A stretch of 64,000 bases of DNA from Dehalococcoidia bacterium (GTDB taxonomy: Bacteria > Chloroflexota > Dehalococcoidia > DSTF01 > RBG-16-68-14), in the NCBI GenBank assembly GCA_040882355.1, contig JBBEBM010000043.1:1-64000 (forward strand), read 5' to 3'. A program made the position numbers and the translations under genes. The notes beneath the pieces were generated by a model. That model did no database searches. It was not told where the DNA came from and saw nothing but the letters and a program-made list of their open reading frames with translations. Of the stretch, positions 1,447 to 30,261 are shown in pieces (position 1 is the stretch's first letter; every line of letters begins with the position of its first letter).

Positions 1447-2037
1447 ATGCCGGACCTCAGCCGCCCGCCCGATTACCTGAACGCCCTGCGCGACACCCTC
1501 GCCCGCCTCGACGTCGCCATCGTCGACACCATCACCGAGGCGCTGCTGCGCGCTCGCGACCAGGCTCGAACCGTGTTCATCATCGGCAACGGAGGCAGCG
1601 CCTCCACCGCCGCTCACATGGCGACTGACCTCTGCAAGGTCACGGCTGTCGACGGCAAGGCCGGCGTTCGCGCCGTCTCGCTGCCCGACAATGTCGCGCT
1701 GCTCACCGCATGGTCGAACGACGCAGCTTACGAGCAGAGTTTCGCCGGCCCGCTCCGAGCCTATCTTTCGCCCGGCGACGTGCTCATCGCCATCTCAGCC
1801 AGCGGCCGCTCCCCGAACGTGCTGGAGGCGACACGCGTCGCCAACGAGCTGGACGCGCTCACCGTAGGCCTCAGCGGCTTTGGCGGCGGCGAGCTTGCGC
1901 GGCTCGCGCAAATCAGCCTCGTAGTCGACGCGTGCGACTACGGGCTCGTCGAGGACGCCCATCTGGCCGTCAACCACGCGCTCACTGCCGCCGTCAAGGC
2001 CCGCATCCGCGATCGTATTGAGGCGGAAGCAGCGTGA
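1447..2037 (+). CDS. gmhA: Phosphoheptose (sedoheptulose-7-P) isomerase, SIS domain
   Basis: IIGNGGSASTAAH, ISASGRSPNV, GLSGFGGG, VEDAHL motifs; GAGGGAG upstream of ATG 1447. Confidence 0.88.
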   Translation: MPDLSRPPDYLNALRDTLARLDVAIVDTITEALLRARDQARTVFIIGNGGSASTAAHMATDLCKVTAVDGKAGVRAVSLPDNVALLTAWSNDAAYEQSFAGPLRAYLSPGDVLIAISASGRSPNVLEATRVANELDALTVGLSGFGGGELARLAQISLVVDACDYGLVEDAHLAVNHALTAAVKARIRDRIEAEAA

Positions 2038-3200
2038 CGCTCGGCACATCGATGAAGGTCGCGCTCGTCCACGACTATCTCGTGGAACGCGGCGGCGCCG
2101 AGAAGGTGCTGGCCGCGCTCCACCAGACGTTGCCGGACGCGCCCATCTACACCTCGGTCCACAACCCGGACACCACGCTAGACGTTTTCCGCGGGGCCGA
2201 CGTGCGCGCATCGTTCCTGCAGCGCCTGAGCGCGCACCCGCATCGCTACCGCGCCCTGCTGCCGCTCTACCCGCTCGCCTTTCGCTCGTTCGACCTTTCG
2301 GCGTACGACCTGATCATTAGCAGCGCGTCAGGTTTTGCCAAGGGCGTCCGCAAGGCGCCCGGCGCTCGCCACGTCTGCTACTGCTACACGCCGCCCCGGT
2401 TCGTCTGGGGTTACCAGGACGCGAACCACCACGAACGCGTGGGCGCCGCCGGTCGCTGGGGCCTACGCGCGCTCCGTCCGTACCTGGCCCGGCGCGATCG
2501 CGTCGACGCCAGGAGCGTCGACCGGTTCCTCACCAGCTCGAAGTACGTCGCGGACCGCATCGCGAGCGTCTACGGGCGCGACGCGACGGTGCTGCCGCCG
2601 CCGATCGACTGCGCAGGGTTCACCCCGGCGGACGAGCGCATCGACGACTTCCTCCTCGTCTCCCGCCTCGTGCCATACAAGCGGGTCGATACCGCAATCG
2701 AAGCGTTCAACCGCAACGGCCTGCCGTTGATCGTCGTCGGCGACGGCCGCGACCGCCGCCGCCTCGAAGCGATGGCGAGGAGCGATCGCATTCGTTTCCT
2801 CGGCCACCTGCCGCAGCACGATGTGCGCGAGCTGCTCGCTAGCTGTCGGGCGCTCATCGTCACCGGCGAGGAGGACTTCGGCATGGCCGCGCTCGAGGCG
2901 AACGCCTCCGGCCGGCCGGTGATCGCGTACGGCGCGGGCGGCGCGCTGGAGACCGTCGTCCCTGGCGTCACCGGCCTCACCTTTGAAGAACAGACGGCCG
3001 CTGCGCTGATTGAGGCCGTCGATCGCTTCCAGGGCCTTGCCTTCGGCGCGGAGACCCTCGTCGGCCACGCCCGCCGCTTCGACACGTCGCAGTTCCAGAA
3101 CGCGGTCCGGGCCATCGTGCACGAAGAGGCGCGCCTTGCCGCCGCGCCCGGCGGCGAGCGTGTCGCCGGGCCGCTCCAACAAGGAGAGGCCCGCTCATGA
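2034..3200 (+). CDS. GT4 glycosyltransferase (WbaZ-like)
   Basis: KVALVHDYLVERGGAEKV, VSRLVPYKRVD, EEDFGMAALEANASGRPV. Confidence 0.92.
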   Translation: MTLGTSMKVALVHDYLVERGGAEKVLAALHQTLPDAPIYTSVHNPDTTLDVFRGADVRASFLQRLSAHPHRYRALLPLYPLAFRSFDLSAYDLIISSASGFAKGVRKAPGARHVCYCYTPPRFVWGYQDANHHERVGAAGRWGLRALRPYLARRDRVDARSVDRFLTSSKYVADRIASVYGRDATVLPPPIDCAGFTPADERIDDFLLVSRLVPYKRVDTAIEAFNRNGLPLIVVGDGRDRRRLEAMARSDRIRFLGHLPQHDVRELLASCRALIVTGEEDFGMAALEANASGRPVIAYGAGGALETVVPGVTGLTFEEQTAAALIEAVDRFQGLAFGAETLVGHARRFDTSQFQNAVRAIVHEEARLAAAPGGERVAGPLQQGEARS

Positions 3201-4189
3201 CAGGCCGATACCGCCCGCTCGATCTCGACGCGGTGCGGCTGCGCCCGATAGGTGAGCGCGCCCACAAGGTGCGCCTGGAGGACTTCGGCCGAACGCCCAG
3301 CGCCGGCGCGTCCTTCGCCGAGTTCATCGACGCGCTGCCTCACATTCTCAAGGGCAACGACCTGCGCGAAGTCGTCGAAGGACTCGCCCGCTCCGTCGAG
3401 CGGGGCAAGCCTGTGGTCTTCGGCCTCGGAGCGCACGTGATCAAGTGCGGCCTTAGTTCGCTCATCATCGACCTCATCGACCGCGGAGTGATCTCGGCCG
3501 TCGCTCTCAACGGCGGCGGGGCGATCCACGACTTCGAGCTCGCAATGTTCGGCGCAACCTCCGAGGACGTCGAAGCGAACCTCGCCGGCGGCCAATACGG
3601 CATGATCGCCGAGACGGCCCAGGGCTTCCACGCAGCGCTGGCGGCGCCTGACGGCGAGGGTGGCCTCGGCTGGGCGCTCGGTCGCGCGCTCACCAGGGCG
3701 GCCGCGCCCTACGGCCACCTGAGCATCCTTCAGCGCGGCTACGACGCGGGCGTGCCCGTCACCGTCCACGTCGCCATCGGCACCGACACGGTGCACATGC
3801 TGCCCGGCGTCGACGCTGGGCGCATCGGCGCGCTCAGCCACCGCGACTTCCGCCTGCTCGCCGCGGTGATCGCTGAGATGCGAGGAGGCGGCGCCTACGT
3901 CAACGCCGGCTCTGCCGTCGTGCTGCCGGAGGTCTTCCTCAAGTGCGTCGCCCTCTGCCGCAACCTGGGCCACGACATCGGCGGGTTCACGACTCTCGAT
4001 CTGGATATGGTGCGCCACTACCGGCCAATGACGAACGTCGTCGCGCGCCACACAACGCTCGGCGCGCGCGGCTACGCGATCACCGGCCACCACGAGCTGC
4101 TCCTGCCCCTGATCGCCTTCGCCCTCGTGGAGCGCCTCGAGGCGGACGCCGCGTCCGCACCCATGGACCGGAGCCACGCCCATGTCTGA
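3197..4189 (+). CDS. Uncharacterised deoxyhypusine-synthase-like fold protein
   Basis: GLGAHVIKCGL, NGGGAIHDFE, VHVAIGTD, GSAVVLPEVFLK, ITGHHELLLP; ATGA overlap with the upstream GT4 gene and an 8-bp overlap with the downstream kinase gene. Confidence 0.7.
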   Translation: MTGRYRPLDLDAVRLRPIGERAHKVRLEDFGRTPSAGASFAEFIDALPHILKGNDLREVVEGLARSVERGKPVVFGLGAHVIKCGLSSLIIDLIDRGVISAVALNGGGAIHDFELAMFGATSEDVEANLAGGQYGMIAETAQGFHAALAAPDGEGGLGWALGRALTRAAAPYGHLSILQRGYDAGVPVTVHVAIGTDTVHMLPGVDAGRIGALSHRDFRLLAAVIAEMRGGGAYVNAGSAVVLPEVFLKCVALCRNLGHDIGGFTTLDLDMVRHYRPMTNVVARHTTLGARGYAITGHHELLLPLIAFALVERLEADAASAPMDRSHAHV

Positions 4190-5216
4190 GCGCTACCCGA
4201 TCGTCGACGGCCAGTGGCCGTCGCTCGCGAAGGCATTCGGCCGGCGGACCGTGCTCGTGGTCGGCGACGTAATGCTCGACCACACCGCATCCGGCCGGGC
4301 CCCCCGCCTCAGCCCGGAGGCGCCCGTGCCGGTGCTCATCGTCGATGAAGAGTCGTACGGACTGGGCGGCGCCGCCAACGTCGCCCGCAACCTGGTGTCC
4401 CTGGGCGCCCGCGCTCGCGTCGTCGGCGTTGCCGGCGCTGACGAAGCCGGCGAACGGCTGCTCGGCCTGTGCCGCGCGGAGTCGATCGACGAGCGCGCCG
4501 TCCTCATCGCCAAAGACCGCCCGACCACGGAGAAGACGCGCTTCATCGCTCACGCCCAGCAGGTGCTCCGCGTCGACAGTGAGACCGCGCAGCCGCTCAC
4601 CTCGGACGAAGAACGGTGGCTCATCGAACGCATCGCGGCAAGCGCCCCGATTGACGCCGTGATCGTCTCCGACTACGCGAAGGGCGTCGTCACCGGCGGC
4701 GTGATCGCCGCCGCGGTCGATGTCGCTCGCAGGTCCGGCGCGCCCTGCATCGTCGATCCGAAGGGCGTTCGCTTCGAGCGCTACGCCGGGTGCACGCTGA
4801 TCACCCCCAACGCCGAGGAGGCGATGGCCGCGACGCATCTGCCGCTGCGCGACGACGCCGCCGCGGAAGCGATCGGCCGCGCGTTACTCGGCGCTGTCGG
4901 CTGCGAGGCCGTAGTGATCACGCGAGGGCAGGACGGCGTCAGTCTCGTGACGAACCAGCAGGCGTGGCACCTCCCCGCCCAGGCGCAGGACGTGTTCGAC
5001 GTCGCCGGCGCGGGCGATACACTCGTCGCCGCGCTGACGCTCGCCTGCGCGTGCGCGGCGCCGTTGCCCGCGGCCGTCGCTCTCGCCAACAGCGCTGCCG
5101 GGCTGGTCGTCCGCGCGCGCGGCGTCGTCACCACAACGCGTGACGAGCTCGGCCGCGCGCTGGCGGCGCAAGAATCGAGCCACCGCAACACGCGAAAGGA
5201 GCGGACCGCCGCATGA
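4182..5216 (+). CDS. rfaE1: D-glycero-beta-D-manno-heptose-7-phosphate kinase (HldE domain I / HldA)
   Basis: VGDVMLD, RLSPEAPVPV, GGAANVA, SDYAKG, TPNAEE, DVAGAGDT. Confidence 0.93.
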   Translation: MSERYPIVDGQWPSLAKAFGRRTVLVVGDVMLDHTASGRAPRLSPEAPVPVLIVDEESYGLGGAANVARNLVSLGARARVVGVAGADEAGERLLGLCRAESIDERAVLIAKDRPTTEKTRFIAHAQQVLRVDSETAQPLTSDEERWLIERIAASAPIDAVIVSDYAKGVVTGGVIAAAVDVARRSGAPCIVDPKGVRFERYAGCTLITPNAEEAMAATHLPLRDDAAAEAIGRALLGAVGCEAVVITRGQDGVSLVTNQQAWHLPAQAQDVFDVAGAGDTLVAALTLACACAAPLPAAVALANSAAGLVVRARGVVTTTRDELGRALAAQESSHRNTRKERTAA

Positions 5217-5761
5217 ACGGAAAGCTGCTCTCCCTGGAGGACGCCGAAGCCCGCTGCCGGACGATCCAGGCGCAGGGTCGGCGCGTCGTGCTGACCAACG
5301 GCTGCTTCGACCTGCTGCACGTGGGTCACGTGCGCTACCTGCGCAAGGCGCGCGGACTGGGCGATGCGCTCGTCGTCGCGCTGAACAGCGATGCCTCCGC
5401 CCGCGCGCTCAAGGGCCCGGCGCGGCCCATCGTGCGCGAGGAGGAACGGGCCGAAGTGGTAGCGGCGCTCGCCTCCGTGGACTACGTTACCGTCTTCGAC
5501 GATGCGACCGCGGAGGGTGTGGTGAGCGCGCTGCGGCCCGACATCTACGTGAAGGGCGGCGACTACGACACAGACCGCCGGGACCTGCCCGAGGCCGGCG
5601 TCGTGCGAGGCTACGGCGGCACCGTCTTCCTGCTCGAACTCGAGCCTGGCACCGGAACCACCGAGATCATCCGGACGGTCGTGCGCCGCTATCGCGACGG
5701 CCTCTTCTCCTGGCCGAGGACCGCGCTGCCGCCTGTGAGGGACGCCGTTGCTGGCGGCTAG
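5213..5761 (+). CDS. rfaE2: D-glycero-beta-D-manno-heptose-1-phosphate adenylyltransferase (HldE domain II / HldC)
   Basis: TNGCFDLLHVGHVRYL, LNSDAS, KGPARP, YVKGGDY. Confidence 0.93.
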   Translation: MNGKLLSLEDAEARCRTIQAQGRRVVLTNGCFDLLHVGHVRYLRKARGLGDALVVALNSDASARALKGPARPIVREEERAEVVAALASVDYVTVFDDATAEGVVSALRPDIYVKGGDYDTDRRDLPEAGVVRGYGGTVFLLELEPGTGTTEIIRTVVRRYRDGLFSWPRTALPPVRDAVAGG

Positions 5762-7232
5762 CGACCGCATCGCCTTCGGCCGGTCGGCACCCGGCGGCGC
5801 GCTCGATCTCGCGCCCGCGGCCGGACGCTGGCTACCCCTCGCGGGCGTCATCGCGGCGGGCGCCGCCGGCATGCTGGCCGGAAGGTTCGACGCCCTGCCG
5901 GCCGCTATGCTGCTCCTCGCCGTCGCGTCGCTCCTCGCTGCGCTGCTCAGCGCCCATGCCGCGGTTGCCCTCCTCATCGCGCTCCTGGTGATACCGCTGG
6001 AGACTACGGGGCTGCTCGCGGGCCGGCTTAACCAGGTCGATACGCTCTACGGAGCCGCGGTGTTGGGCCTCGCCCTTCGAGCGTTCGCATCGAAGGAGCG
6101 CCTGGCGCTCCAACCGGTTGGGCTCGCGCTGCTCGCGTTCATCGCTGCCGGCACAGTCGCGCTCGCTGCCGGGGTCCTCAGCACCGACACACTCAACGCG
6201 GCGCTGGGCCACTTTAGAGGCCCGTTCGGCTACGCGCTCATCCCCGCGCTCGTCCTCACGATGGGAAAGGAGGGCAAGAGCAAGCGCCAGGCGCTGCTCT
6301 GGCTCCTCTGCGCGGTCGCCGTCATCACCGCGGCGCGCGCCGTCCTCGCCTGGGCGCAGCTCAACGGACTGGTTCACCTGAGTGGCGTGCTCGCGCGCCT
6401 CGCCGCCCCTGGCGAGGATCAGCGGATCGGCGTCGTGGCGGCCACGGGGGGCGAGTTCGGCTATCTGCGCGCCTGGGCCGGCAACTTCGAAGGTAACTCC
6501 CTCGGCACCTTCCTCGTGCTTATCGCCCCGGTCAGCGCCTACTTCGCCCTTCAGAGCCGGTCTCACGCCCTTCGACTGGCCTTCGGCGCAGCGACAGCGC
6601 TGCTCCTCGTCGCGCTCATGGCAAGCTACTCGCGCGGGGCGTACCTCGGCCTGGCTGCTGCCTCGCTACCTTTGATCTTCAATCTGTGGCGCCGCTCGCC
6701 TCTGGGCGCGATCGCTCTCGTACTGACCTCGGGCATGTTGCTGGTTTTCCTTGCCAGCGAGCTGCCCGGCGCCCAGGACCGCCTGATAACGTTGGGCGCC
6801 CTGGGCGACGACCCCACCGTGCAGCACCGGCAGATCGTCTACCAGCAGGTGCTCGATGCCTTTCGTCAGAACCCGATCTGGGGCATTGGCCTGGGCACCC
6901 GCTTGGGTGAATTCGGCACCGGCGGCGACTCCCTCTACCTCTTCCTCCTACTCCACGGCGGACTGCTCGTCTCCGGCGCCTTCCTCTTGCTCGTCTGGGT
7001 CGCCGGACGTCAGGTGATCGACGCGTTTCGCGCCGGCCGGTTGAGCGGCCTCGATCTCGCGGTAGCGGCGGGGCTGTCGGGATTCGCCGTCCACTCCGCC
7101 GTCGACTACACGCTCTGGAACCCGAAGGTGGCGCTCACCATGTGGCTCATGGTCGGCTTCCTCATGGCAGCCGTCCTGGAACACGGCGACGAGCGCGTGG
7201 AGGACCCGCCGGTGGAGGAGCCGCAATGGTAG
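5748..7232 (+). CDS. O-antigen ligase/polymerase family membrane protein (Wzy_C)
   Basis: Many TM segments; NSLGTFL, SYSRGAYLG, NPIWGIGLG, HSAVD. Confidence 0.85.
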   Translation: MLAASDRIAFGRSAPGGALDLAPAAGRWLPLAGVIAAGAAGMLAGRFDALPAAMLLLAVASLLAALLSAHAAVALLIALLVIPLETTGLLAGRLNQVDTLYGAAVLGLALRAFASKERLALQPVGLALLAFIAAGTVALAAGVLSTDTLNAALGHFRGPFGYALIPALVLTMGKEGKSKRQALLWLLCAVAVITAARAVLAWAQLNGLVHLSGVLARLAAPGEDQRIGVVAATGGEFGYLRAWAGNFEGNSLGTFLVLIAPVSAYFALQSRSHALRLAFGAATALLLVALMASYSRGAYLGLAAASLPLIFNLWRRSPLGAIALVLTSGMLLVFLASELPGAQDRLITLGALGDDPTVQHRQIVYQQVLDAFRQNPIWGIGLGTRLGEFGTGGDSLYLFLLLHGGLLVSGAFLLLVWVAGRQVIDAFRAGRLSGLDLAVAAGLSGFAVHSAVDYTLWNPKVALTMWLMVGFLMAAVLEHGDERVEDPPVEEPQW

Positions 7233-8809
7233 CCGGTCAGCAGGCGATAGCGGCCGTCCGCGCGAGGCCCAGGTTGACCCTCTTGCGTGCCAGCTTGCTC
7301 CTTCTCGCTGTCGCGGGCGCGTCCAAGCTGACAACCCTCGCCGCCGACTCCTACGTCGCGGCCCGCTTCGGCTTGAGCGCCGACGCCGACGCCTACCTGC
7401 TCGCCGTCGGCCTGCTCGGCGCGTTGCTCGGGGCGCCCAGCGAGACCCTGCGGCTCGCCCTTGTGCCGATCTGCGGACGCTACCTGCGCCAGGGCGATCG
7501 GCGGCGCGCGGCGGGCGTCGTCGCGCTCGTGCTGGGCGCCGCCGTGGTCGTCGGCGGCGCGGCGGCGCTTGCCCTCGGGCTGAGCGCGCCCTGGCTCGCT
7601 CCGCTCGCCGCTCCCGGCTTTGAAGGCGCCACGCGCGACACCGCCGTCCAGCTTACGCGAATGCTCGCGCCCGCGCTCCTGCTCGGACTCGTCATGTCCG
7701 TGCTGCTCGGCGTCTTGCACGCTCAGCTCCGCTTCGGCGTGCCGGCCGTCGCGGGCATCGGACTGAGCGCCGGCGTCATCGGCGGCGGTGTCCTTCTCAG
7801 CGACGCCCTGGGTGTGAGCGCGCTCGCCGCCGGCTACGTAGCAGGCACGGGTGTGGCCGTGCTGGTGCTGGCGTGGCTGGCGCGCGGCCTCTTCCGCGAA
7901 GGCGCCGCCCTGCGCGGCGCTCGAGGCGAGCTGGCGCCCTTCGTTCGCCTCGCCCTTCCCACCGGCATCGCGATCACGATCGTCAGCAGCGGCGCCGTCA
8001 TCGAGCGCGCCGTCGCCTCAGCGACAGGCGCCGGCAACGTGGCCGCGCTCGGCTTCGCGATCAAGCTCGTCACGCAGGCCGGCATCATCTCCCAGAGCAT
8101 CTGGACGCCGCTCACTCCGCTGCTCATCGCCTCCGGCAGCGGCAGCCGCGACAACGACCCGCTGCTCGTCGCGTTTTCGATCAAGCTCGTCCTGCTCATC
8201 CTCACACTCGCGACGTCGCTCATCATCGCCCTGCGCGAGCCGCTCGTCGCCGTCATCCTGGAACGAGGCGCGTTCACCGCCGCCGACACCAGCAAGACGG
8301 CCACATTGCTCGCGCTGCACAGCGGCTCGCTGGTCGGCGAAGGGCTGTTCATGGTCGCCGTCGCCGCCCTCCTCTCCCTCTACGATGCAACGACGCGCCT
8401 CGTCGGGTCAGTGCTCTTCATCGTTGCCAAGGTCGTCCTCATGTTCGCGCTGGCGCCCGTCATCGGCGTCGCCGGTGTGGCCATCGCCGCGTCCGTCTCC
8501 AGCCTGCTCGCCGGGGCCTTCTCAGTCGCCGTGCTTGCCCGTCGCTTCCCGAGCGACACGACGCGCGATCTGCTCGCCTGCGGGGCGAAGGCCGCGCTCG
8601 CCGGATTGGTCGCGCTGGCCGTGGCTGGCGTGATCGCCGGGCTGGTCAGCAGCGCATCGCCTTCGAGCAACGTCGTCGTCCTCGCCCTCGGCGGCCTGGC
8701 CGCGACAGCCGCGTATCTCATCGTGCTGCTGGTCCTGCGCGTCCAGGAGATCGAGACGATCTTCCGCGGGGCGCAGCAACGCCTGACTCAGGTCTGGAGC
8801 CGTCCATGA
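7226..8809 (+). CDS. MurJ/MviN-like MOP flippase
   Basis: AARFGLSADADAYLLA, APGF, ERGAFTAADT, GVAGVAIA; many TM segments; GGAGGAG RBS before ATG 7226. Confidence 0.85.
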   Translation: MVAGQQAIAAVRARPRLTLLRASLLLLAVAGASKLTTLAADSYVAARFGLSADADAYLLAVGLLGALLGAPSETLRLALVPICGRYLRQGDRRRAAGVVALVLGAAVVVGGAAALALGLSAPWLAPLAAPGFEGATRDTAVQLTRMLAPALLLGLVMSVLLGVLHAQLRFGVPAVAGIGLSAGVIGGGVLLSDALGVSALAAGYVAGTGVAVLVLAWLARGLFREGAALRGARGELAPFVRLALPTGIAITIVSSGAVIERAVASATGAGNVAALGFAIKLVTQAGIISQSIWTPLTPLLIASGSGSRDNDPLLVAFSIKLVLLILTLATSLIIALREPLVAVILERGAFTAADTSKTATLLALHSGSLVGEGLFMVAVAALLSLYDATTRLVGSVLFIVAKVVLMFALAPVIGVAGVAIAASVSSLLAGAFSVAVLARRFPSDTTRDLLACGAKAALAGLVALAVAGVIAGLVSSASPSSNVVVLALGGLAATAAYLIVLLVLRVQEIETIFRGAQQRLTQVWSRP

Positions 8810-9612: not shown

Positions 9613-10287
9613 ATGTCACGCTATACAGCCCTCAGCACGGAACTTCACTTCCAAGCCGTGCGGGACGTTGGCTGGTCCGTGGTACTCGATGTTGGATGCG
9701 GCGACGGAACGAACACCGTGGCGTACCTGGAGCCGCACTCGGTCATTGGCATTGACGGCTACGGCCCGGCCTGCGAGACCGCCCGCGCCGCGGGGTTGAG
9801 CGTCATGCAGGGCGACCTGGAACAGCCCTGGCCCATCGATGATGAGTCAGTGGATGTCGTGTCGGCCAATCAGGTGATCGAGCACCTTGCGGACACCGAC
9901 CGGTTCGCCCGCGAGTGCCACCGCGTGCTCCGGCCCGGCGGCACAGCCGTGATCTCCACAGAGAACCTGGCCGCCTGGCCGAATATCGCGGCGCTCCTGC
10001 TCGGCCAGGAGCCCTTCTCCAATAGCTACAGCAAGCGGGTCTGGGCGGTGGGGAATCGCCTCTCGCGCCGTTCCGGCCCTCTGCCGGAAGAGGTAGCCGC
10101 GTACCCTCATCGCTCCGTGGGCAGTCATCAGGCCGTAGCCGACCTCTTTGTTCAGTACGGGTTCCAGCACGCTCGTTCCTTGGGCGTCCACACCTTGCCC
10201 ACGAAATCAACGGTCCTTCGATGGCTCCGACGTATCGATGTCCGTCATTCGATGTACATCACGCTCATCTTTCGCAAGACATCATGA
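9613..10287 (+). CDS. Class I SAM-dependent methyltransferase
   Basis: VLDVGCGDG, QVIEHL, RVLRPGG. Confidence 0.9.
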   Translation: MSRYTALSTELHFQAVRDVGWSVVLDVGCGDGTNTVAYLEPHSVIGIDGYGPACETARAAGLSVMQGDLEQPWPIDDESVDVVSANQVIEHLADTDRFARECHRVLRPGGTAVISTENLAAWPNIAALLLGQEPFSNSYSKRVWAVGNRLSRRSGPLPEEVAAYPHRSVGSHQAVADLFVQYGFQHARSLGVHTLPTKSTVLRWLRRIDVRHSMYITLIFRKTS

Positions 10288-19220: not shown

Positions 19221-19223
19221 GCC

Positions 19224-20342: not shown

Positions 20343-21025
20343 CATCCGCCAAAGCGCCGCGCTACTTCCCCGCCACTCGCGCTTCCCCGCTCTACGACGC
20401 GTCGAAGCGCGCAATCGACATCGTGGTGGCGCTCGTCGTGCTCTTCGGCCTGGCGCCGCTCTGGCTGCTCACCGCGCTCGCCATCCGGCTCACCTCGCGC
20501 GGGCCCGCGCTCTACCGCGCGCAGGTCGCTGGGCTTGGCGGGCAGCCCTTCGCCTACTACAAGTTCCGCTCGATGCGAATCGAGGGCGACGACGCGGTGC
20601 AGCGCCGTTTCCGTCGCGAATTCATTCGCGCGAACAAGCCTTTCCGCGTCGAGCGCGACGCCGCCGGCCGGCAACGCGCGGTCTACAAAGTGGTCGACGA
20701 CCCGCGCGTCACGCCAGTCGGGCGCGTCATTCGCAAGCTGAGCATCGACGAGGTGCCGCAGTTCATCAACGTCCTGCGCGGCGAGATGAGCGTGGTCGGG
20801 CCCCGCCCGCCGCTGCTCTGGGAGGTGGAGTACTACGACGACTGGCATAGTGAGCGGCTGGCCGTCAAGCCGGGCATCACCGGCCCCGCCCAGGTGCGCT
20901 CCCGTCAGGGCTTGCCCTTCGACCAGATGGCGCGGATCGACATCGACTACGCGCGGCGGCGGTCCCTCTGGCTCGACCTGCGGGTCATGCTCCAGACGCC
21001 GCTCGCCATCCTGCGCGGCGGCTAG
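20339..21025 (+). CDS. Initiating monotopic phosphoglycosyl transferase (sugar transferase)
   Basis: [42 protein letters not shown]. Confidence 0.93.
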
Positions 21026-22059
21026 TCTGGCTGCTCCAAGATCGAGACCGCGTCGGGATAGTCGTAGCCGCTCCCGATGATCTCCGGCACCGAGGGTGTG
21101 CCGTCCTCGGAGAACGTGATCTTGCGCACGGTACCCTGACCTCCCGCCGGCCCTGGCAGCTCGCCCGGCGCCTCCTGCACGATCGCCAGGTCGGCGTAGT
21201 AGAGCGTCCCGTCCTTCGCAACCGCGAGGCCCGCCGGGCTGCCGATGTCGTCGCCTTCAGCGATCGTCCGCACGAACTCGCCGGTCGCATCGTACTCGCG
21301 GATCGTCTTCGGCAGGAAGACGCTTGAGACGTACCAGTTGCCGTTGGGCGCCCGCGCGATGCTGAAGGGCGTGCCCATCTCCTCATCCTCGATGAAAGTG
21401 TCCTTTGCCGGCACGACGGAGGCGCACTCGTCCTCGCTCTCCGGGAACGGACCCGAGTAGACCAGCACGACGCCCGGGGGCACGGTCTCTGACAGGTACA
21501 CCTTGCCCCCGTCGATCGTGATCGTGCCCGGCACGCGCAGCTCGCTCTCCAGGATGCAGGACGTCCCGTACTCCGGCGGGAAGAAGACGATGAACTTGCC
21601 GTCCATGGCGTCGAAGCTCCCCGAACCGACGTCCGTGACGAAGAGCCGCTCCTCGTCATCGAACCCACAGCCGAACGGCTCGGGCTGCGCCGGCTCGTTC
21701 GGCGTCTCCGGCTCCAGGATCTTGCGCACGAACTGGCCCTCCGGCGTGAAGATACCCCAGCCCTGACGGTCCCCCTCGCTCTGGTTCGTATCGTGGCCCA
21801 TCAGGAAGTTGCCGCTGCCGTCCGGCAGCAGGCACGCCTGACCGTTCAGGTCCTCCCCGCCATCCTGCGCCGACGGTACGAGCACGGTCGGATCGTCCGT
21901 CTCCAGATCGTAGACGTCCAGCTCGTTGCCCTGCGCGCTGAACAGCAAGTCCACGGTGCCCTCGCTGTCGTTACACGCGAACGAGAGCGCGACCAGCCCT
22001 ACGACAAGCGCGCCGAAAAGCGCCTTAGGGGGCGGGACTAGGTGTCGGAAGCGGTGCAC
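21022..22059 (-). CDS. Putative lipoprotein with NHL/SMP-30-like beta-propeller
   Basis: Lipobox-like LSFAC; repeats PFGCGFD, PFSIAR, PAGLAV; very acidic; start codon uncertain. Confidence 0.7.
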   Translation of the reverse strand: MHRFRHLVPPPKALFGALVVGLVALSFACNDSEGTVDLLFSAQGNELDVYDLETDDPTVLVPSAQDGGEDLNGQACLLPDGSGNFLMGHDTNQSEGDRQGWGIFTPEGQFVRKILEPETPNEPAQPEPFGCGFDDEERLFVTDVGSGSFDAMDGKFIVFFPPEYGTSCILESELRVPGTITIDGGKVYLSETVPPGVVLVYSGPFPESEDECASVVPAKDTFIEDEEMGTPFSIARAPNGNWYVSSVFLPKTIREYDATGEFVRTIAEGDDIGSPAGLAVAKDGTLYYADLAIVQEAPGELPGPAGGQGTVRKITFSEDGTPSVPEIIGSGYDYPDAVSILEQPD

Positions 22060-23713
22060 AATCAGCCTCCCCGTCGATGCAGAACGCCCAGACGCCGGCC
22101 GGCGCCCTGGCCAGAATAGCCTCGATATTGGTACCGCCGGCGCCCTGCGCGCCGAAGCCGGAGCCCATGTAGACCACGCCGTCCACAGGCACCGCCTGCG
22201 AGAAGCCAAGCCCGCCCAGCGGCAGCTTCGCCAGGATCTCGCCCGTATCGGCGTCGATTGCGCGCATCGAGAAGTCGATGCCGCCCATGAACACGACGCC
22301 CGGGATCGCGCTCGTCCCGCCGAAGAAGGGCGCCGCCTCCTCCTGCGACCAGACCACCTCGCCCGTCCCCGCATCGAGCGCCCACGCGGACGGCTTCTGC
22401 GGCGCCTCCACGTCCTCGCCGATGCCCACGCCGAAGTAGATCCGCCCGTCCATCACCGCCGGTGTGCCCGTAATCCCGCCGATCGCGCCTCCCTCGACGA
22501 CATTTCGCGTCCAGTACGGTTCGATCTCGCCAGTGAGCTCGTTCTCGCCGTCGCGGTCCAGCAGGTAGTAGCTGCCATCCTTGTTGCCGATGCCCACCAC
22601 CTCGCGCTCCTCGCCCTCGATCGTCGCCGTGAACAGGTTCGGCGCGGCGCCGAAGGCGTAGTCGTCGTTGTCGATTTCGCGCGGGCGCCAGCTCCAGACC
22701 GGCTCGCCGTCGAAGTCCACCGCCACGAGCGCCTCGTTATGCGTCGTCATCGGCGGCGTCGGCGGCGCCGACTGCGGGTCATCGTCCGTGTCGCAGTTGC
22801 TCGTCGCAAAGTAGAGCAGCTCACGGCCGAAGTCGACGCTCACCGGCGACCAGACGTTGCCACACGCCGTCTCTGTGCGGTCGAAATCGCACCCCCCTCG
22901 CGTTGAGAAGAAGTCGTCCTCGAGGCCGAGCTGCTCCGCGTTGTGGTAGCCGTCGAATTTGCGGACGTCGTCGTCGTCGTCCGGCCTGCACGTCTCGCCC
23001 GTCTCCACGTCGAAGTACCAGTGCAGATGGCCGTCCTTCGCCGAAAGGCCGTAGAACCCGCCCTTGCCCGGCGCGCGATCATTCACGTCCATCCCGAAGG
23101 CGACCAGGTCCTGCTCTGGCAGCACCGCCGGCGACGACAGGATCTCGTTGCGTTCCGTGTTGGTGTCGCAGTCCTGGCAGCCGGTGCCGGCGTCGAACTG
23201 CCAGATCTCGGCGCCGCTCACGGCGTCCAGCGAGTACATCGTCATGCCACCACCCACGAACACCCGCGGCTCGCCGTCCACCTCCGCGATCGCCGCCGAC
23301 GACGCGATGATGCCATACGACACGCCCTCGTGCGGCTTCACCTCGTAGGCCCAGAGCTGGGTGCCTTCGTCGGCTCGGATCGCGTAGACCTTGCCGTCGT
23401 ACGAGCCAACGAACACGATGCGCGTCGGCCCCTCATTGGGCAGGTCGATCGTGGCGACGGACGGCGTCGCGGCGACGGGCGCTCCCGTGCGGAACTGCCA
23501 CTTCGCAATGAGGTTGGCCGCGTTCGCCTTTGTGATGATCGTCTCGTGCGGGTTGTCGCCCGTCCGCTCATACGTGCGCGCCAGCATTGGCGCGTCTTCC
23601 GGCAGCCCGAGCAGGGCCGGCGGCTCGCTCCCTCCATCCTCGCTGGAGCATGCGATGACGCCGCACAATACCATCGCGATCAACGAGAATCGAACGCCCC
23701 AACGAACGCTCAT
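22025..23713 (-). CDS. PQQ-binding-like beta-propeller lipoprotein (PVA-dehydrogenase-like)
   Basis: GVIAC lipobox; repeats YAIRADEGTQLW, YSLDAVSGAEIW, ALDAGTGEVVW; VWSPVSVD, DYAFGAAP. Confidence 0.8.
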   Translation of the reverse strand: MSVRWGVRFSLIAMVLCGVIACSSEDGGSEPPALLGLPEDAPMLARTYERTGDNPHETIITKANAANLIAKWQFRTGAPVAATPSVATIDLPNEGPTRIVFVGSYDGKVYAIRADEGTQLWAYEVKPHEGVSYGIIASSAAIAEVDGEPRVFVGGGMTMYSLDAVSGAEIWQFDAGTGCQDCDTNTERNEILSSPAVLPEQDLVAFGMDVNDRAPGKGGFYGLSAKDGHLHWYFDVETGETCRPDDDDDVRKFDGYHNAEQLGLEDDFFSTRGGCDFDRTETACGNVWSPVSVDFGRELLYFATSNCDTDDDPQSAPPTPPMTTHNEALVAVDFDGEPVWSWRPREIDNDDYAFGAAPNLFTATIEGEEREVVGIGNKDGSYYLLDRDGENELTGEIEPYWTRNVVEGGAIGGITGTPAVMDGRIYFGVGIGEDVEAPQKPSAWALDAGTGEVVWSQEEAAPFFGGTSAIPGVVFMGGIDFSMRAIDADTGEILAKLPLGGLGFSQAVPVDGVVYMGSGFGAQGAGGTNIEAILARAPAGVWAFCIDGEADCAPLPTPSPAP

Positions 23714-23879
23714 GGATGAAGCGTGTAGCATACGCCTGACTTGAGTGTCAAGAAGTCAGGGCTGAGGTCCGCCGCTGCGCGACACGAACTTGAGACCCGT
23801 TTCCGGCCGGCCGCGGCGCGCTGATGCAGATGTGTGGAGGGCTGGTCGGTTCACCGGGGCTCCCGCCGGATCCTGTTGG

Positions 23880-24461
23880 TTAGATCCTCCCTTCGTCCAG
23901 GAGCGGATCGAGACGATCTTCCCGGCTCAGAGAACGCCCGATCAGCAGCAGGACACACGCCGATCCCACCTCGATAAGGCAGTTCACAATGATGCCCGCG
24001 CCCCGCGCCTTCGGCAGGAAGCTCCAACCCATGAGCGGCCAGAAGACCGTCTGAGGCATGCGTGTCACGGGATCGCACGGGAGGTGCGCCAGAGCGCCGG
24101 CGCCCACCGTCAGCAGCCTTGCGTCACCGCTGCGCGAGCGCTGGAGCAAGCCGGCCAGCACGAGCGCTGATCCGAAGAGTAACGTGTGCCCGAAGAGATG
24201 ATCGTTGGCGCGGAAGAACTTACGTAGGAATATCCAGCCGAGCGGCTTGTCAATGAGATCGGGGAGCAGCGCGCCGAACGCCACCAGGCGATAGTCGATT
24301 GTGTGGGCGTCATGCCCTTCGGCGGCCGAAGGAGATCGTAGCGGCTCGAGGGCCGGAGTGGCCAGTGTCTGAGCATCCTGTCCCGGTCGCGCGCGCTCGA
24401 TGAGCCGGCTGCCGGCCCACACGACCCCGCAGGCGAAGGTGATATGGCTCAGAGGATACAC
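23880..24461 (-). CDS. Membrane metal-dependent hydrolase (YdjM-like)
   Basis: SH, GALLPDLIDKP, GHTLLF, AHLPCD, FWP; AGGAG RBS before GTG 24461. Confidence 0.85.
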   Translation of the reverse strand: MYPLSHITFACGVVWAGSRLIERARPGQDAQTLATPALEPLRSPSAAEGHDAHTIDYRLVAFGALLPDLIDKPLGWIFLRKFFRANDHLFGHTLLFGSALVLAGLLQRSRSGDARLLTVGAGALAHLPCDPVTRMPQTVFWPLMGWSFLPKARGAGIIVNCLIEVGSACVLLLIGRSLSREDRLDPLLDEGRI

Positions 24462-24547
24462 GATCGCGCTCCTAACGGTGGAGACGTCCCGGTTCACCAG
24501 CCTAACGTGATCGACTGGTCTCGGCAATGAGTCGTGGCCCTCGTGCC

Positions 24548-25963
24548 CTACTTCGCCGCGATTCGCGCCGGCGCTACATCATCGAGAGCCGGTGAGTGGT
24601 ACGAAAGGGGCACCGATTCCTCCCGCCGCAGCGCTCGCATGAGCGATGCGACGAGCAAACGCAGATCGACCCAGAGCGAGTACTCCCTAACGTAGGCGAC
24701 GTCGTGGAGCCCCTGCTCCTCCAGCGACCACTCGACACGCTCGCCGACGCGCGGGCCGGTGAGGCCCGGTCGTACCAGCAGGAGCGTGCGCGCCCAGGGC
24801 TCCTGCAGGAGCCGCTCGTCGTCGGGGAGCGCGCGCGGCCCTACCAGGCTCATCCGTCCCGCCAGCACGTTCAGCACGTTCGGCAGCTTGCCCAGCCGCC
24901 CCATCGCGATGCCGTCGCGTAGCCGCCACGCCCAGCTCGCCGCGCCGCCGTCCGGCTGCTGACCTGCCGGCCGGGCAACGGTGCGCAGCTCGAACGTGGC
25001 GCCGCGCAGCCCGTGCGCGCGCTGGCTCACCAGCACCGGACCGCCCGTGAGACGGGCAGCCGGCCAGAGCAACGCCATCAGCGCGCCAAGGAAAGGTAGC
25101 GTTGCCAGCGCCGCGCCGTAGTCGAGGAGCGTCTTGAGCGCCGCGTCGAGGCCCGTGATGCGCAGCCGCTCCAGCGTGAGCAACGGCACGTAGTTCGCGT
25201 CCAGGGGCCTGGCCCCCGCTGCCAGGAGGTGGTAGAGGCCCGGCGCGAGCCGCACCGCCGGCTCATCTGTCGAAGCCGCCAGCTCCAGCAGGTCGCGCTG
25301 CGACTCCCAGCTCACCGCGTGCGGCACCACGATCAGATCGCTCGCGCCCAGCGTGTCAGCCAGCTCTGCCGCGCGCCTCGGATCGCCCACGACGCGGAGG
25401 CCGTCAACCACTTCGACGCCGACAGGTTGGTAGTCGTCCAGGAAGCCCAGCACCCGCCAGCCCGTATTCCCGTGCGAAAGCTGGCGCGCGATCGTGACCG
25501 CGTGCTCGTCGGTGCCGGCCAGCAAGACCATCCGCTGAAGCCGCCCGGACCGTCGCAGCCGGAACACCAGCCGCCGGAAGCCGAAGCGCGCGCCGCCCAC
25601 CAGCAAGCACGAGTACACCCAGTCAAGCACCAGCGCCCCGCGCGACAGGCCCGCGTCGAGCAGAAACGAGAGCGCCAGCGCCGCGAACGCCGCATACGTG
25701 CACGAACGCACCACGCCCGCGTACTCGCGGTGTCCGCTGAACAACTCGTCCAGGCGGTAGAGCCCGCCCGCCGCCATCAAGGCGAACGCCAGTAAGGGTA
25801 CGACGAACAACAGCGCGAGCGCGCCCGGACTCGCGCCGCTGCCGCCCGGCCAGCCGTGTACGCCGTAGCGCAGCGCAAGCGCCGCAGCCGCGGCCCACAG
25901 CAACATCCATGCATCACCCGCAGCGAGGGCCAGGACCGTCGCTTGTCGTTCGTTGGCGCGCAT
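24548..25963 (-). CDS. WcaJ/WbaP-architecture polyprenyl glycosylphosphotransferase homologue, catalytic motifs degenerate
   Basis: N-terminal TM bundle, VLGFLDD CoA-binding-like domain, KTLLDY, MSLVGPR, RPGLTG, SLWVDL; GK in place of the DE dyad. Confidence 0.85.
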   Translation of the reverse strand: MRANERQATVLALAAGDAWMLLWAAAAALALRYGVHGWPGGSGASPGALALLFVVPLLAFALMAAGGLYRLDELFSGHREYAGVVRSCTYAAFAALALSFLLDAGLSRGALVLDWVYSCLLVGGARFGFRRLVFRLRRSGRLQRMVLLAGTDEHAVTIARQLSHGNTGWRVLGFLDDYQPVGVEVVDGLRVVGDPRRAAELADTLGASDLIVVPHAVSWESQRDLLELAASTDEPAVRLAPGLYHLLAAGARPLDANYVPLLTLERLRITGLDAALKTLLDYGAALATLPFLGALMALLWPAARLTGGPVLVSQRAHGLRGATFELRTVARPAGQQPDGGAASWAWRLRDGIAMGRLGKLPNVLNVLAGRMSLVGPRALPDDERLLQEPWARTLLLVRPGLTGPRVGERVEWSLEEQGLHDVAYVREYSLWVDLRLLVASLMRALRREESVPLSYHSPALDDVAPARIAAK

Positions 25964-27018
25964 CAGGCGGCCTTGGCCAGCCCTGCCTCAGCACCCGGCG
26001 TCGGTACGCGCGTCGCGGAGTTGAGCATCACTTTCGCGCCGCCATCGTCGAAGTGGAACTCCATCCGGTAGAGGCCGCGCGCGCGCATCTCCTGACTGAC
26101 CGCATCCTGGTATCGCGGCTCGCAGTACAGCAGCAAGAAGCCGCCTCCGCCCGCGCCGGCGATCTTGCCGCCCAGCGCCCCGCATTCGCGCGCCCGCTGA
26201 TAGACCTCGTCGATCTCGGCGTTCGTCACGCCGCTGGCCAGACGGCGCTTCGCCGCCCACGACTCGTGCAGGATCCCTCCGAAGCGATCGAGGTCGCCCA
26301 TCTCTAGCGCCTCGCGCGTCTCCGCAGCGAAGCCCTTGATCGCGTGCAGCGCCTCCAGCACGTCGGACTCGCCCGCCGCGGTCGAGTCCCGTTGCTCGCG
26401 CAGGATCGCGTTCGCGCTGCGCGATGCGCCTGTGTAGAACAGCAGTAGCCGCGACTCCAGCTCGTGGCGCACGGCGGGCAGCAGGCGCATCGTCGTCACC
26501 CCGACACCCTCGGTCTCGAACGAGATGACGTTCAGCCCACCGAACGCCGACGCGTACTGGTCCTGCTTGCCGATCGGGCTGCCCAGTTTGTCGATCTCCA
26601 GACGCGAGGCGCGCTCCGCAATCTCACCCGGCGAGAGGCGCTGGCCTATGTACGTGCTGATCGCCTTCGTCAACGCTACTGCGACCGTGCTGGAGGAGCC
26701 GAGGCCGGTGCCCGGAGGCACCTCCGATGCCAGGAAGATCGAGAAGCCGTCGTTCACGCCGAACTCGTGCAGCACGGCGCGGGGCAGCCGCAGCTCGCCG
26801 TCCCAGACAGGCTGCTCGTCCGCCGACCAGCGCGAGAAGGCGCTGAAGTCTGACGAGCTGATGTGGATCCCTTCGCCTCCGGACGGATGCAGGAACACGT
26901 AGAAGTACTTGTCGATCGCCGCGCTCACCACAAGCCCGCCGAAGCGCTCGTAGTACGACGGCAGATCGGTGCCACCACCGGCGAAGCTGATGCGAACGGG
27001 TGCGCGTACCAGTAACAT
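25963..27018 (-). CDS. hddA: D-glycero-alpha-D-manno-heptose-7-phosphate kinase (GHMP)
   Basis: RAPVRISFAGGGTDLP, PPGTGLGSSS, IGKQDQY, GGKIAGAGGGG. Confidence 0.88.
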   Translation of the reverse strand: MLLVRAPVRISFAGGGTDLPSYYERFGGLVVSAAIDKYFYVFLHPSGGEGIHISSSDFSAFSRWSADEQPVWDGELRLPRAVLHEFGVNDGFSIFLASEVPPGTGLGSSSTVAVALTKAISTYIGQRLSPGEIAERASRLEIDKLGSPIGKQDQYASAFGGLNVISFETEGVGVTTMRLLPAVRHELESRLLLFYTGASRSANAILREQRDSTAAGESDVLEALHAIKGFAAETREALEMGDLDRFGGILHESWAAKRRLASGVTNAEIDEVYQRARECGALGGKIAGAGGGGFLLLYCEPRYQDAVSQEMRARGLYRMEFHFDDGGAKVMLNSATRVPTPGAEAGLAKAA

Positions 27019-27027
27019 GAGGCCTCC

Positions 27028-27750
27028 TTACACCGCTCCGGCGGCGGCCATGAGCTCGCCGGCGACTTGCGCCTTCCGATAGCCATCGGGCGTCCCAATA
27101 TCGATCACAATCGCCTCGCTCCGAAGGCCATAGAGCGGCGCGCCCTGCGCGAGCAGCAGCGGGAACAGGTCGCGGCCGAAATCGAACGGCTCGTTCGGCG
27201 GCACGTGGCGCAGTACGTTCGGGTCGACCACGTACACGCCCGCGTTCGCCCACGTCGAGGGCGCGTCGCCAAGCCGCGGCTTCTCGACAAACTCGACGAT
27301 GCGCTCGCCATCGAGGCCCGCCACGCCGCAGCCGGCCAGGCTCTCCGGCTCGTAGAGCGCGATGCTGACCGCCGCGCCCCGTTCGACGTGAAACGCCGCC
27401 AGCGCCGTCAGATCGATGTCGGTGAGCACGTCACCGTAGATCACGTAGAACGGCCCGTCACAGAAGAAGCGCTCGAGCCGCTTGACCCCGCCCGCGGAGC
27501 CGAGCAACCGTTCCTCCATTGAAAAGGTGACCCTCAGGCCGGCGCGACGCGCGCGCTCCAGGTACGCGACGATCGTCTCCGGCTGGTGGTGCAGATTGAC
27601 GGCGATCTCTTTCACGCCGTGACGGCTGATCAGGTCGAGAAGGTGCGCCATGAGCGGCCGCCTTGCGACCGGCAACATCGGCTTGGGCAGCGACTCCGTG
27701 AGCGGACGCATCCGCCGGCCTTCGCCGGCGGCCAGGATCATCGCCTTCAT
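27028..27750 (-). CDS. hddC: Nucleotidyltransferase, probably heptose-1-P guanylyltransferase
   Basis: ILAAGEGRRMRPLT, PKPMLP, FVEKP, NAGVY, DIGTP; lies between gmhB and hddA. Confidence 0.7.
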   Translation of the reverse strand: MKAMILAAGEGRRMRPLTESLPKPMLPVARRPLMAHLLDLISRHGVKEIAVNLHHQPETIVAYLERARRAGLRVTFSMEERLLGSAGGVKRLERFFCDGPFYVIYGDVLTDIDLTALAAFHVERGAAVSIALYEPESLAGCGVAGLDGERIVEFVEKPRLGDAPSTWANAGVYVVDPNVLRHVPPNEPFDFGRDLFPLLLAQGAPLYGLRSEAIVIDIGTPDGYRKAQVAGELMAAAGAV

Positions 27751-28319
27751 GCCGCCACCGGCTCCGTTCGCGCGGCAAAGCGCGACCGCACGGCGCTGGC
27801 GGCATCGGTCAGGCTGCGCGCGACGTAGAGGGGCGGCGTCTCTCGATACGCCGCGTGCCGCAGCGTCTCTTCTCCGCGACCCGTCCTCACCAGCACGAAC
27901 GGCACGCGGGCCGCCCGCGCGGCCAGCAGGTCCTCCGGCGCGTCGCCGATGAAGACGCAGCGCTCGGGCGGCTCGCCCAGCGCGGCCGTCGCCCGCCTAA
28001 GCAGGCCGGGCTGCGGTTTGCGGCAGCCACACCCCGCCCAGGGCGCGTGCTCACAGGCGAACACGCCTTCGATCGCGCCGCCGTTCGCCGCGCACAGCAC
28101 CAGCATCCGCCGGTGGATCTCGCGCAGCCGGTGCGACGCCAGCAGCCCGCGTCCCACGGCCGACTGGTTGGTCACGACCGCGAGGCGCAGCCCTGCGGCT
28201 CGCATCGTTGCGAGCGCCTCCAGTGCCCCTGGCAGGAACTCGAACTCGTCCCAGCGCTTCACGTAGTCCACGCGGTTTTTGTTGATCACACCGTCCCGGT
28301 CCAGCAGCACAGCGGCCAT
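27747..28319 (-). CDS. gmhB: Heptose-1,7-bisphosphate phosphatase (HAD)
   Basis: LDRDGVIN, VTNQS, CEH...CGCRKP, IGD. Confidence 0.92.
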   Translation of the reverse strand: MAAVLLDRDGVINKNRVDYVKRWDEFEFLPGALEALATMRAAGLRLAVVTNQSAVGRGLLASHRLREIHRRMLVLCAANGGAIEGVFACEHAPWAGCGCRKPQPGLLRRATAALGEPPERCVFIGDAPEDLLAARAARVPFVLVRTGRGEETLRHAAYRETPPLYVARSLTDAASAVRSRFAARTEPVAA

Positions 28320-30256: not shown

Positions 30257-30261
30257 GCCCG

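Follow-up and report, generated by a model that had tools for sequence, protein, structure and literature searches.

Heptose is usually taken as a hallmark of Gram-negative lipopolysaccharide (LPS), and ADP-heptose is an innate-immune agonist. In a Gram-positive-type organism studied in 2001, GmhA, HddA, GmhB and a nucleotidyltransferase, said to be a GTP-specific HddC, reportedly supply an activated alpha-heptose for a surface glycan; we know of no parallel HldA/HldC/GT9 route in that organism. Here, we analyzed a 64,000-nucleotide stretch of DNA (the window; positions 1–64000 of contig C43 of the Chloroflexota genome G000, ~69% G+C), in which two convergent gene strings fill 1.4–32.5 kb and carry both an HldA/HldC-type (beta) and an HddA-type (alpha) heptose gene set. 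The alpha set resembles the 2001 system as an enzyme set for a surface glycan, with the difference that the transferase there is said to be the GTP-specific HddC. Our preferred reading, to which we give a probability of about 0.6, is that 1.4–32.5 kb is one Wzx/Wzy-type surface-glycan locus combining two heptose modules that circulate separately in the class.

Campylobacter jejuni is like G000 in having HldE-type and HddA/HddC-type routes in one genome. According to PMC10680097, its single GmhB (Cj1152) is encoded in the ADP-heptose cluster and serves the GDP-heptose route, and its capsule cluster has a GmhA of its own (Cj1424). However, C. jejuni is a diderm with LPS, whereas searches of G000 turned up no LPS genes, its GmhA is a sole copy and both routes share one locus; moreover, G000 has a split HldE, no HldD was found in it, and its transferase does not resemble HddC in sequence. 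Enzymes for NDP-beta-D-manno-heptose occur across kingdoms, also outside Gram-negatives (Tang et al., 2024, Science, as presented in the commentary PMC11461863), and G000 shares with them an isomerase, a kinase, a phosphatase and a stand-alone nucleotidyltransferase outside LPS producers. The commentary mentions neither a deoxyhypusine-synthase-like fifth protein nor a pairing with an alpha route. The arginine (STTR5) that it ties to CDP/UDP-heptose synthesis is missing from the window HldC, whose motif LEPGTGTT has no Arg at its position 5 nor within the five residues before.

In Geobacter sulfurreducens, the gene order is gmhA (GSU2087), GSU2086 and hldE (GSU2085), and transposon mutants of the three genes had similar electrode growth defects of −3.7, −3.2 and −3.1 (PMC5585712). 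In G000, too, a member of the GSU2086 family is encoded between the GmhA and heptose kinase genes. The HldE of Geobacter, a diderm, is fused and that of G000 split; in G000, moreover, the GSU2086 homolog is separated from GmhA by a GT4 gene, and GmhA is of another lineage. Literature searches at title and abstract level returned nothing relevant on ADP-heptose in Chloroflexi or on heptose in Dehalococcoid*, and no G. sulfurreducens heptose paper was on LPS structure, judging by title.

The two heptose routes and the cell envelope

The G000 assembly, 93.9% complete, totals 3.33 Mb over 82 contigs; the comparison sample consisted of 201 genomes of the same class, G000 counted in. Window proteins were scored by Pfam and NCBIfam profile searches, with NCBIfam scores quoted against equivalog cut-offs, and copy numbers were determined by tblastn of window proteins against their own genome together with hidden Markov model (HMM) searches. 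The genes that bear on the two routes are as follows.

1447..2037, + strand: GmhA, an SIS protein (Pfam SIS_2; TIGR00441 the best NCBIfam match)
2034..3200, + strand: GT4 glycosyltransferase (Glycos_transf_1 / Glyco_transf_4), its start overlapping the GmhA stop
3197..4189, + strand: GSU2086-family protein (NF052581, 352 bits, cut-off 250)
4182..5216, + strand: HldA, HldE domain I, putative heptose-7-phosphate 1-kinase (PfkB; TIGR02198, 338.7 bits, cut-off 345)
5213..5761, + strand: HldC, heptose-1-phosphate adenylyltransferase, HldE domain II as a gene of its own (TIGR02199, 183.6 bits, cut-off 181.5)
11665..13968, + strand: fusion of GT4 and GT9 (heptosyltransferase), 767 aa (PF01075, Glycos_transf_1)
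25963..27018, − strand: HddA-type GHMP kinase (NF049969 the best match)
27028..27750, − strand: short sugar-1-phosphate nucleotidyltransferase in the HddC position (PF00483)
27747..28319, − strand: GmhB, putative heptose-1,7-bisphosphate 7-phosphatase of the HAD-IIIA type (NF006506, 169.5 bits, cut-off 178)

The initial annotation of this DNA had placed GmhA, HldA and HldC in a plus-strand operon and GmhB, the nucleotidyltransferase and the HddA-type kinase in a minus-strand operon convergent with it. All six genes and their coordinates, the GmhA start at 1447 included, were right, and the two strings do converge, the plus string running from 1447 to 21025 and the minus string from 32525 to 21022, where its last open reading frame (ORF) ends. 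The GmhA ORF opens at 1291, with a start ATG at 1447 preceded by GAGGGAG. Neighboring plus-strand genes overlap by 4–14 nt (2034/2037, 3197/3200, 4182/4189, 5213/5216 and 5748/5761).

On the beta side, HldA scores just below its cut-off and aligns to profile positions 3–314 of 315, and HldC exceeds its own. The window copies of HldA, HldC and the GT9 domain are the sole matches in the genome by tblastn and HMM search. Among the matches listed from an HldA scan of a collection of contigs from other genomes were five distant Ruania/Occultella PfkB kinases (25–28% identity). The GT9 domain occupies residues 504–725 of the 767-aa ORF (PF01075, 120.7 bits, cut-off 22; one PF01075 match in the genome), and the GT4 domain residues 232–386 (Glycos_transf_1), with 142 bits on TIGR02201 for the fusion (cut-off 170). 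This fusion protein is the presumed user of ADP-heptose and would transfer the beta-route heptose. HldD (TIGR02197) had no match at E ≤ 1e-50 in the G000 genome and was matched in 2 of the 201 class genomes; the short-chain dehydrogenase/reductase (SDR) of the window reaches 73.6 bits on this model (cut-off 274.6). As HldD was not found, the beta product would be the D-glycero form, unless another enzyme epimerizes it.

On the alpha side, the GHMP kinase reaches 203.6 bits on NF049969 (HddA; cut-off 600), and its top four solved chains are of the HddA/WcbL type (3K85, 209 bits; WcbL 4USK/4USM, 185–188; 4N3O, 174), with fucokinase at 99. The only other GHMP-kinase relative detected by tblastn in the genome is a galactokinase. 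The transferase scores 80 bits on NF049965 (HddC; cut-off 300) and 141 on the ManC model. Its best solved match is 8X7S (182 bits), which bears the name UTP-glucose-1-phosphate uridylyltransferase and on which literature searches returned nothing; GMPPB/ManC-type chains follow at 104–110 bits and the Yersinia HddC chains 5XHW/6JQ8 at 71–72. Homologs of the transferase with 43–55% identity flank HddA in the class genomes G058, G169, G141 and G017. Its paralogs in the G000 genome include a short ManC-like gene beside phosphoglucose/phosphomannose isomerase and RmlA beside RmlB, and the presence of these separate genes suggests that the window transferase is an extra copy dedicated to the minus operon.

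The scores bear on an alternative in which the minus-strand kinase and transferase activate another sugar (mannose, fucose or glucose) and ADP-heptose is the only activated heptose made. In its favor, ManC, GlmU-like and MurU models all outscore HddC on the transferase, whose best solved match is labelled UGPase, and the kinase stands far from the HddA cut-off. We nevertheless consider it highly improbable, as the solved chains that the kinase matches best are heptose kinases, with fucokinase far below; GmhB is translationally coupled to the transferase (4-nt overlap, 27747–27750); the same trio adjoins GmhA in 9 of the 20 HddA loci fetched; transferase and GmhB are fused in G017; and the genome has separate genes of the ManC-like, RmlA and galactokinase types at other places. 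The G017 fusion is a single 456-aa ORF (L044:5382-6749:-) that joins a window-type nucleotidyltransferase to a GmhB domain with 178.9 bits on NF006506. The initial annotation had itself raised the possibility of a mannose-1-phosphate guanylyltransferase at 27028–27750; the ManC score (141 bits) does exceed that of HddC (80 bits), but the HddA context and the GmhB fusion point to heptose, and it is from this context that the heptose role of the transferase is inferred. Of that annotation's claim of ADP- and GDP-heptose routes, the part that HldA/HldC and HddA-type routes are both encoded stood, and the assignment of GDP was not supported, the transferase resembling ManC/UGPase-type enzymes more closely than HddC. 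The alpha product would be an NDP-alpha-heptose, for which GDP is likely by analogy and UDP possible.

From the observed gene content, copy numbers, synteny and phylogeny, we infer a scheme of activities, nucleotides, sharing and glycan product. GmhA would convert sedoheptulose-7-phosphate to the 7-phosphate of D-glycero-D-manno-heptose as the sole isomerase for both routes. In the alpha route, HddA would phosphorylate the alpha anomer, GmhB would take off the 7-phosphate, and the adjacent ManC/UGPase-like transferase would produce NDP-alpha-heptose. In the beta route, the GSU2086-family protein would carry out an extra step. A transaldolase / fructose-6-phosphate aldolase family gene (43686–44360, − strand), 11 kb from the cluster and among housekeeping genes, encodes a possible source of sedoheptulose-7-phosphate.

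Judged by its sequence, this is an organism without detectable LPS genes in which both heptose routes are encoded. LpxC, LpxB, LpxK, the KdtA/Kdo transferase family PF04413 and Omp85 had no match in the 93.9%-complete genome, and every control of these LPS and outer-membrane searches was matched in diderm reference genomes. The genome has one sortase, the control for which matched three Gram-positive reference genomes only, and two window ORFs close with a canonical sorting signal, made up of LPxTG, a hydrophobic segment and basic residues. The absence of lipid A/Kdo genes, which the initial annotation had noted for the window, extends to the whole assembly in these searches; its monoderm-type envelope agrees with the sortase and the two LPXTG ORFs, no LPS or outer-membrane marker having been found; and a full LPS pathway, its own counter-case, did not come up in the searches for LpxC, LpxB, LpxK and Kdo transferase. 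One of the two ORFs (30262–30846, − strand) encodes an LPSTG-anchored Ig-like protein (Big_1 / Invasin_D3, weak) between the Wzz/BY-kinase and DUF4012 genes; its place is kept in G058, at 45% identity, and it could receive or display the glycan. The other (52771–53355, + strand) is a small ORF ending in LPATG, a hydrophobic stretch and RARR.

Two modules, one locus

In the class, strong HldE-domain-I kinases (≥ 228 bits) occur in 29 of the 201 genomes, 13 of which have two copies, HldC (E ≤ 1e-25) in 33, HddA-like kinases (E ≤ 1e-30) in 37 and GmhB (E ≤ 1e-15) in 42. Strong HldA and an HddA-like kinase coexist in 12 genomes; in 11 of these the two genes lie on different contigs, and only G000 has both in one locus. 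The beta genes recur as a module of GT9, GmhA, GSU2086, in some cases GmhB, HldA and a priming transferase (12 of the 14 class loci fetched). The full alpha set of nucleotidyltransferase, HddA, GmhA and GmhB was found in the 9 HddA loci already mentioned, and 3 more of the 20 have HddA, GmhA and GmhB with the nucleotidyltransferase not detected. The initial annotation had called the system undescribed, which is too strong a word: each module is common in the class, 12 of the 201 genomes have both, and the literature has a C. jejuni precedent for the sharing of GmhB (PMC10680097) and NDP-heptose enzymes outside Gram-negatives (PMC11461863). What appears to be new is the joining of both modules in one locus, by a presumed inversion and insertion, with a single alpha-lineage GmhA that would feed both, as well as the association of GSU2086-family proteins with the beta route.

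A history of the layout is suggested by G058, the nearest relative, which belongs to the same taxonomic order and in which the whole locus is one co-directional operon. It begins with WzzBYK (60% identity to the window), LPXTG-Ig (45%), DUF4012 (45%), GmhB (51%) and the transferase (55%), continues with HddA (63%), the long phosphotransferase (47%), GmhA (50%), MurJ, orfX, GT4 and GT4, and ends with the short phosphotransferase (44%) and an SDR (49%). Class-wide searches found no strong HldA, no HldC and no GSU2086 in this genome, and the window genes at 21022..24527 have no detected counterpart in its operon. Relative to the G058 gene order, the window genes running from GmhA through the short phosphotransferase occupy the opposite strand and read toward the remainder, the layout expected of an in-place inversion, and GT4, GSU2086, HldA and HldC stand directly behind the window GmhA. 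An ancestral one-way alpha-heptose operon, in the form kept in G058, may thus have had its distal half inverted, giving the convergent layout; GT4-GSU2086-HldA-HldC would then have been inserted right after GmhA, and by this insertion the alpha-lineage GmhA would have come to feed both routes.

The remaining genes of the two strings are those of a Wzx/Wzy-dependent locus: Bac_transf occurs twice, and a MurJ-family protein, Wzy_C and Wzz with a P-loop kinase are present by Pfam and NCBIfam. Reading frames and starts in 8806..11833 were chosen by third-codon-position G+C (GC3).

5748..7232, + strand: Wzy_C / O-antigen-ligase-like membrane protein (PF04932, 50 bits)
7142..8809, + strand: MurJ/Wzx-type flippase (PF03023, 146 bits)
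8806–9612, + strand: GT2 (Pfam)
9613–10287, + strand: methyltransferase (Pfam)
10221–10967, + strand: small ORF without family label
10964–11833, + strand: second methyltransferase (Pfam)
13611..18231, + strand: GFO/IDH/MocA oxidoreductase, ArnA-N-like formyltransferase, DegT aminotransferase and GalE-like SDR
18129..21025, + strand: GT2, then GT4, then a short polyprenyl-phosphate glycosyl-phosphotransferase
20276–21025, + strand: the short phosphotransferase, last gene of the plus string (TIGR03025, 247 bits)
21022..24527, − strand: protein without family label, PQQ-like beta-propeller and YdjM-like membrane protein, closing the minus operon
24548..25963, − strand: long polyprenyl-phosphate glycosyl-phosphotransferase (Bac_transf and CoA_binding_3)
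28328..32525, − strand: DUF4012 protein, LPXTG-anchored Ig-like protein and Wzz/BY-kinase, the head of the minus operon
31029–32525, − strand: the Wzz/BY-kinase, first gene of the minus string

The nearest named homologs of one window protein come from "Chloroflexi bacterium" metagenome-assembled genomes, at no more than 75% identity, and these names are the basis for placing G000 in the phylum. The oxidoreductase, formyltransferase, aminotransferase and SDR set at 13611–18231 (+) suggests a formamido sugar in the same glycan. Homologs of the SDR (45–51% identity) and of DegT (33–49%) lie beside alpha-heptose modules in G169, G141, G143 and others. The SDR itself (17110–18231) was considered as a heptose dehydratase or epimerase and rejected, its best solved matches being GalE-type 4-epimerases and nothing heptose-specific.

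The two phosphotransferases (20276–21025 and 24548–25963) raise the question of whether two glycans are made. The beta route, GT9 and the short phosphotransferase could serve one glycan and the alpha route and the long phosphotransferase another, with GmhA, and perhaps GmhB, in common. Each module tends to this arrangement, a phosphotransferase of its own following HldA in 11 beta loci and HddA in G058, G065 and G007, and the separation of the two genes on different contigs in the other 11 dual-route genomes fits it as well. On the other hand, the window has one flippase and one Wzy_C protein, and G058 holds both phosphotransferases in a single operon without a beta route, which shows that two phosphotransferases need not mean two glycans. 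We regard two assembly lines as a tentative alternative to a single locus product. In the initial annotation, one glycan system with two heptoses had been proposed; both routes are indeed encoded in the locus, and a single glycan does not follow from this, two glycans being equally possible with two priming phosphotransferases.

Proposed sharing of GmhA and GmhB

GmhA has TIGR00441 as its best match, with 93.9 bits against a cut-off of 209, and matches itself alone in the genome; GmhB, too, has a single match. The initial annotation had reported one GmhA and one GmhB, in different operons, for the window, and by tblastn and HMM search this holds genome-wide. A maximum-likelihood tree of GmhA was calculated from 32 sequences, namely the window GmhA, 12 GmhAs of beta modules and 19 of alpha loci. 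A branch with support of 100/100 sets all 12 beta-module GmhAs, together with five second copies from alpha loci, apart from the clade of the window GmhA, which is sister to the GmhA of the G058 alpha module (support 99/92). The tree thus suggests that the single GmhA descends from the alpha route and that the beta module arrived without a GmhA or lost its own. Two GmhA paralogs, one per deep lineage, are found in some alpha modules (L036, L037, L039 and L040, in G111, G123, G169 and G152).

That GmhA is common to both routes is well supported, with the tree as the best evidence. Sharing of GmhB is plausible and not required. Hence, the further claim of the initial annotation that the enzymes must be shared could be kept for GmhA, a sole copy of alpha lineage, and had to be relaxed for GmhB, since 8 of 14 beta-module relatives lack a GmhB at E ≤ 1e-15. 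By synteny with G058, the window GmhB is the alpha-route enzyme. On the profiles, it reaches 169.5 bits on NF006506 (cut-off 178) and 66.9 on the alpha-type NF050049 (cut-off 250), and it matches the solved chains 4PNH (111 bits) and 3L8H (106 bits).

The beta route might bypass the GmhB of the minus operon, another phosphatase or the GSU2086 step giving heptose-1-phosphate, so that GmhA would be the only shared enzyme. This fits the relatives: GmhB was not found (E ≤ 1e-15) in 8 of 14 genomes with GSU2086-HldA and HldC, and none of the five members of family f8, which are 82–98% complete, has one. The orthology by synteny of the window GmhB to the alpha-route enzyme of G058 and a fusion (P0137) in which the partner of HldC and GSU2086 is a DUF89 damage-control phosphatase, not a HAD protein, are in line with it. 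Yet GmhB lies inside the beta module in four class genomes (genus g12), a further fusion (P0132) combines GSU2086, HldC and GmhB, the window GmhB scores far better on the beta-type model than on the alpha-type one, and in C. jejuni a single GmhB serves both routes (PMC10680097, available part). On balance, a bypass seems rather unlikely to us. The eight genomes that have GmhA, GSU2086, HldA, HldC and GT9 without a recognizable GmhB at this threshold are G004, G048, G074, G095, G113, G021, G033 and G016.

Several points weigh against our preferred reading of one locus with two heptose modules. The alpha-route proteins all fall under their NCBIfam cut-offs (GmhA 93.9 against 209, HddA 203.6 against 600, HddC 80 against 300, GmhB 169.5 against 178), and the transferase is closest to a chain named for UTP-glucose-1-phosphate uridylyltransferase (8X7S). 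The two priming transferases are consistent with two separate glycans. The missing GmhB in 8 of the 14 class genomes carrying GSU2086-HldA and HldC suggests that the beta route may use another phosphatase and has no need to share GmhB. Finally, a second GmhA or GmhB could sit outside the 94%-complete assembly.

The GSU2086-family protein

The protein encoded at 3197–4189 scores well above the NF052581 cut-off and belongs to no Pfam family. Its family occurs in 15 of the 201 class genomes and is encoded directly upstream of the best-scoring HldA in 14 of these 15, which are all 13 genomes above the TIGR02198 cut-off and G000; the second, lower-scoring HldA copies of the class are never paired with it. 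In the fifteenth genome (G002, 54% complete), the homolog (contig C266, locus L025, 3828–4811) has an in-frame stop and no adjoining GmhA or HldA, and may be a pseudogene or contain a recoded codon. Beyond the class, the family has at least 7989 homologs (7989 of 8000 scored candidates at E ≤ 1e-10). Among 80 metagenome loci (L047–L126), 64 extend far enough upstream of GSU2086, and 38 of these have GmhA directly upstream; 47 extend far enough downstream, and 5 of these have HldA directly downstream; the remaining neighbors are unrelated housekeeping genes. The family is also found in fusions, namely GSU2086-HldC-GmhB (P0132), GSU2086-PfkB kinase (P0139), GSU2086-HldC-KdsB (P0133) and DUF89 phosphatase-HldC-GSU2086 (P0137).

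An alignment of 38 members, from which the G002 homolog was left out for its in-frame stop, has 53 invariant columns, many of them His, Asp or Glu. The AlphaFold (AF2) model of the window protein (pLDDT 90.8, pTM 0.87) was matched by Foldseek to deoxyhypusine synthases, an LOR/SDH protein and, in ArgZ/AgrE, the C-terminal NAD-binding region (TM 0.48–0.62, 10–17% identity, probability 1.00), and an ESM Atlas search agreed with these matches. At the sequence level, the protein has no match to the Pfam DS family (PF01916) and an E-value of 0.6 to a deoxyhypusine synthase chain, and a few GSU2086 homologs carry a precomputed PF01916 match. Deoxyhypusine synthase, LOR-SDH and AgrE resemble it in fold, at the low identity given, and occur in an entirely different genomic context. 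Literature searches returned no function for the GSU2086 family and nothing on deoxyhypusine synthase together with gmhA.

As the family is fused to kinase, adenylyltransferase and phosphatase domains and stands beside the isomerase, it most simply represents a fifth activity. We are fairly confident that the protein is a genuine component of a heptose pathway of some kind; its gene neighborhood makes it a probable fifth, so far undescribed, enzyme of the beta-heptose route, and its modeled fold points to probable NAD binding. Our preferred guess at its activity is an NAD-dependent epimerization or isomerization. That it epimerizes or otherwise redox-isomerizes a heptose phosphate immediately following the GmhA step, with C6 as one possible site, which would be the job of HldD at an earlier stage, is a more specific proposal that we hold to be doubtful. 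Replacement of known enzymes was also considered. A role in place of GmhB was rejected as the main reading because four class modules contain both GSU2086 and GmhB, P0132 combines GSU2086 with a GmhB domain, and the predicted fold is NAD-binding-like, not phosphatase-like; a role in place of HldC or HldA was rejected because GSU2086 is fused to each.

An LPS-less Chloroflexota lineage thus keeps both heptose activation routes in one surface-glycan cluster. With the beta route in ~14% and the alpha route in ~18% of the sampled class genomes, surface glycans that contain heptose are probably widespread among these uncultured bacteria. The way in which such a cluster may be put together is on view here, through an inversion and the insertion of a module, with a duplicate isomerase lost or never brought. 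In many phyla the GSU2086 family goes together with GmhA, and it has fusions to three of the pathway's four known enzymes; its activity, once found, could extend by one step a pathway that serves as a target for antibiotics and adjuvants as well. If an epimerase role were true, it would alter the textbook ADP-heptose pathway in many bacteria, including Geobacter, Acidobacteriota, Gemmatimonadota and Planctomycetota.

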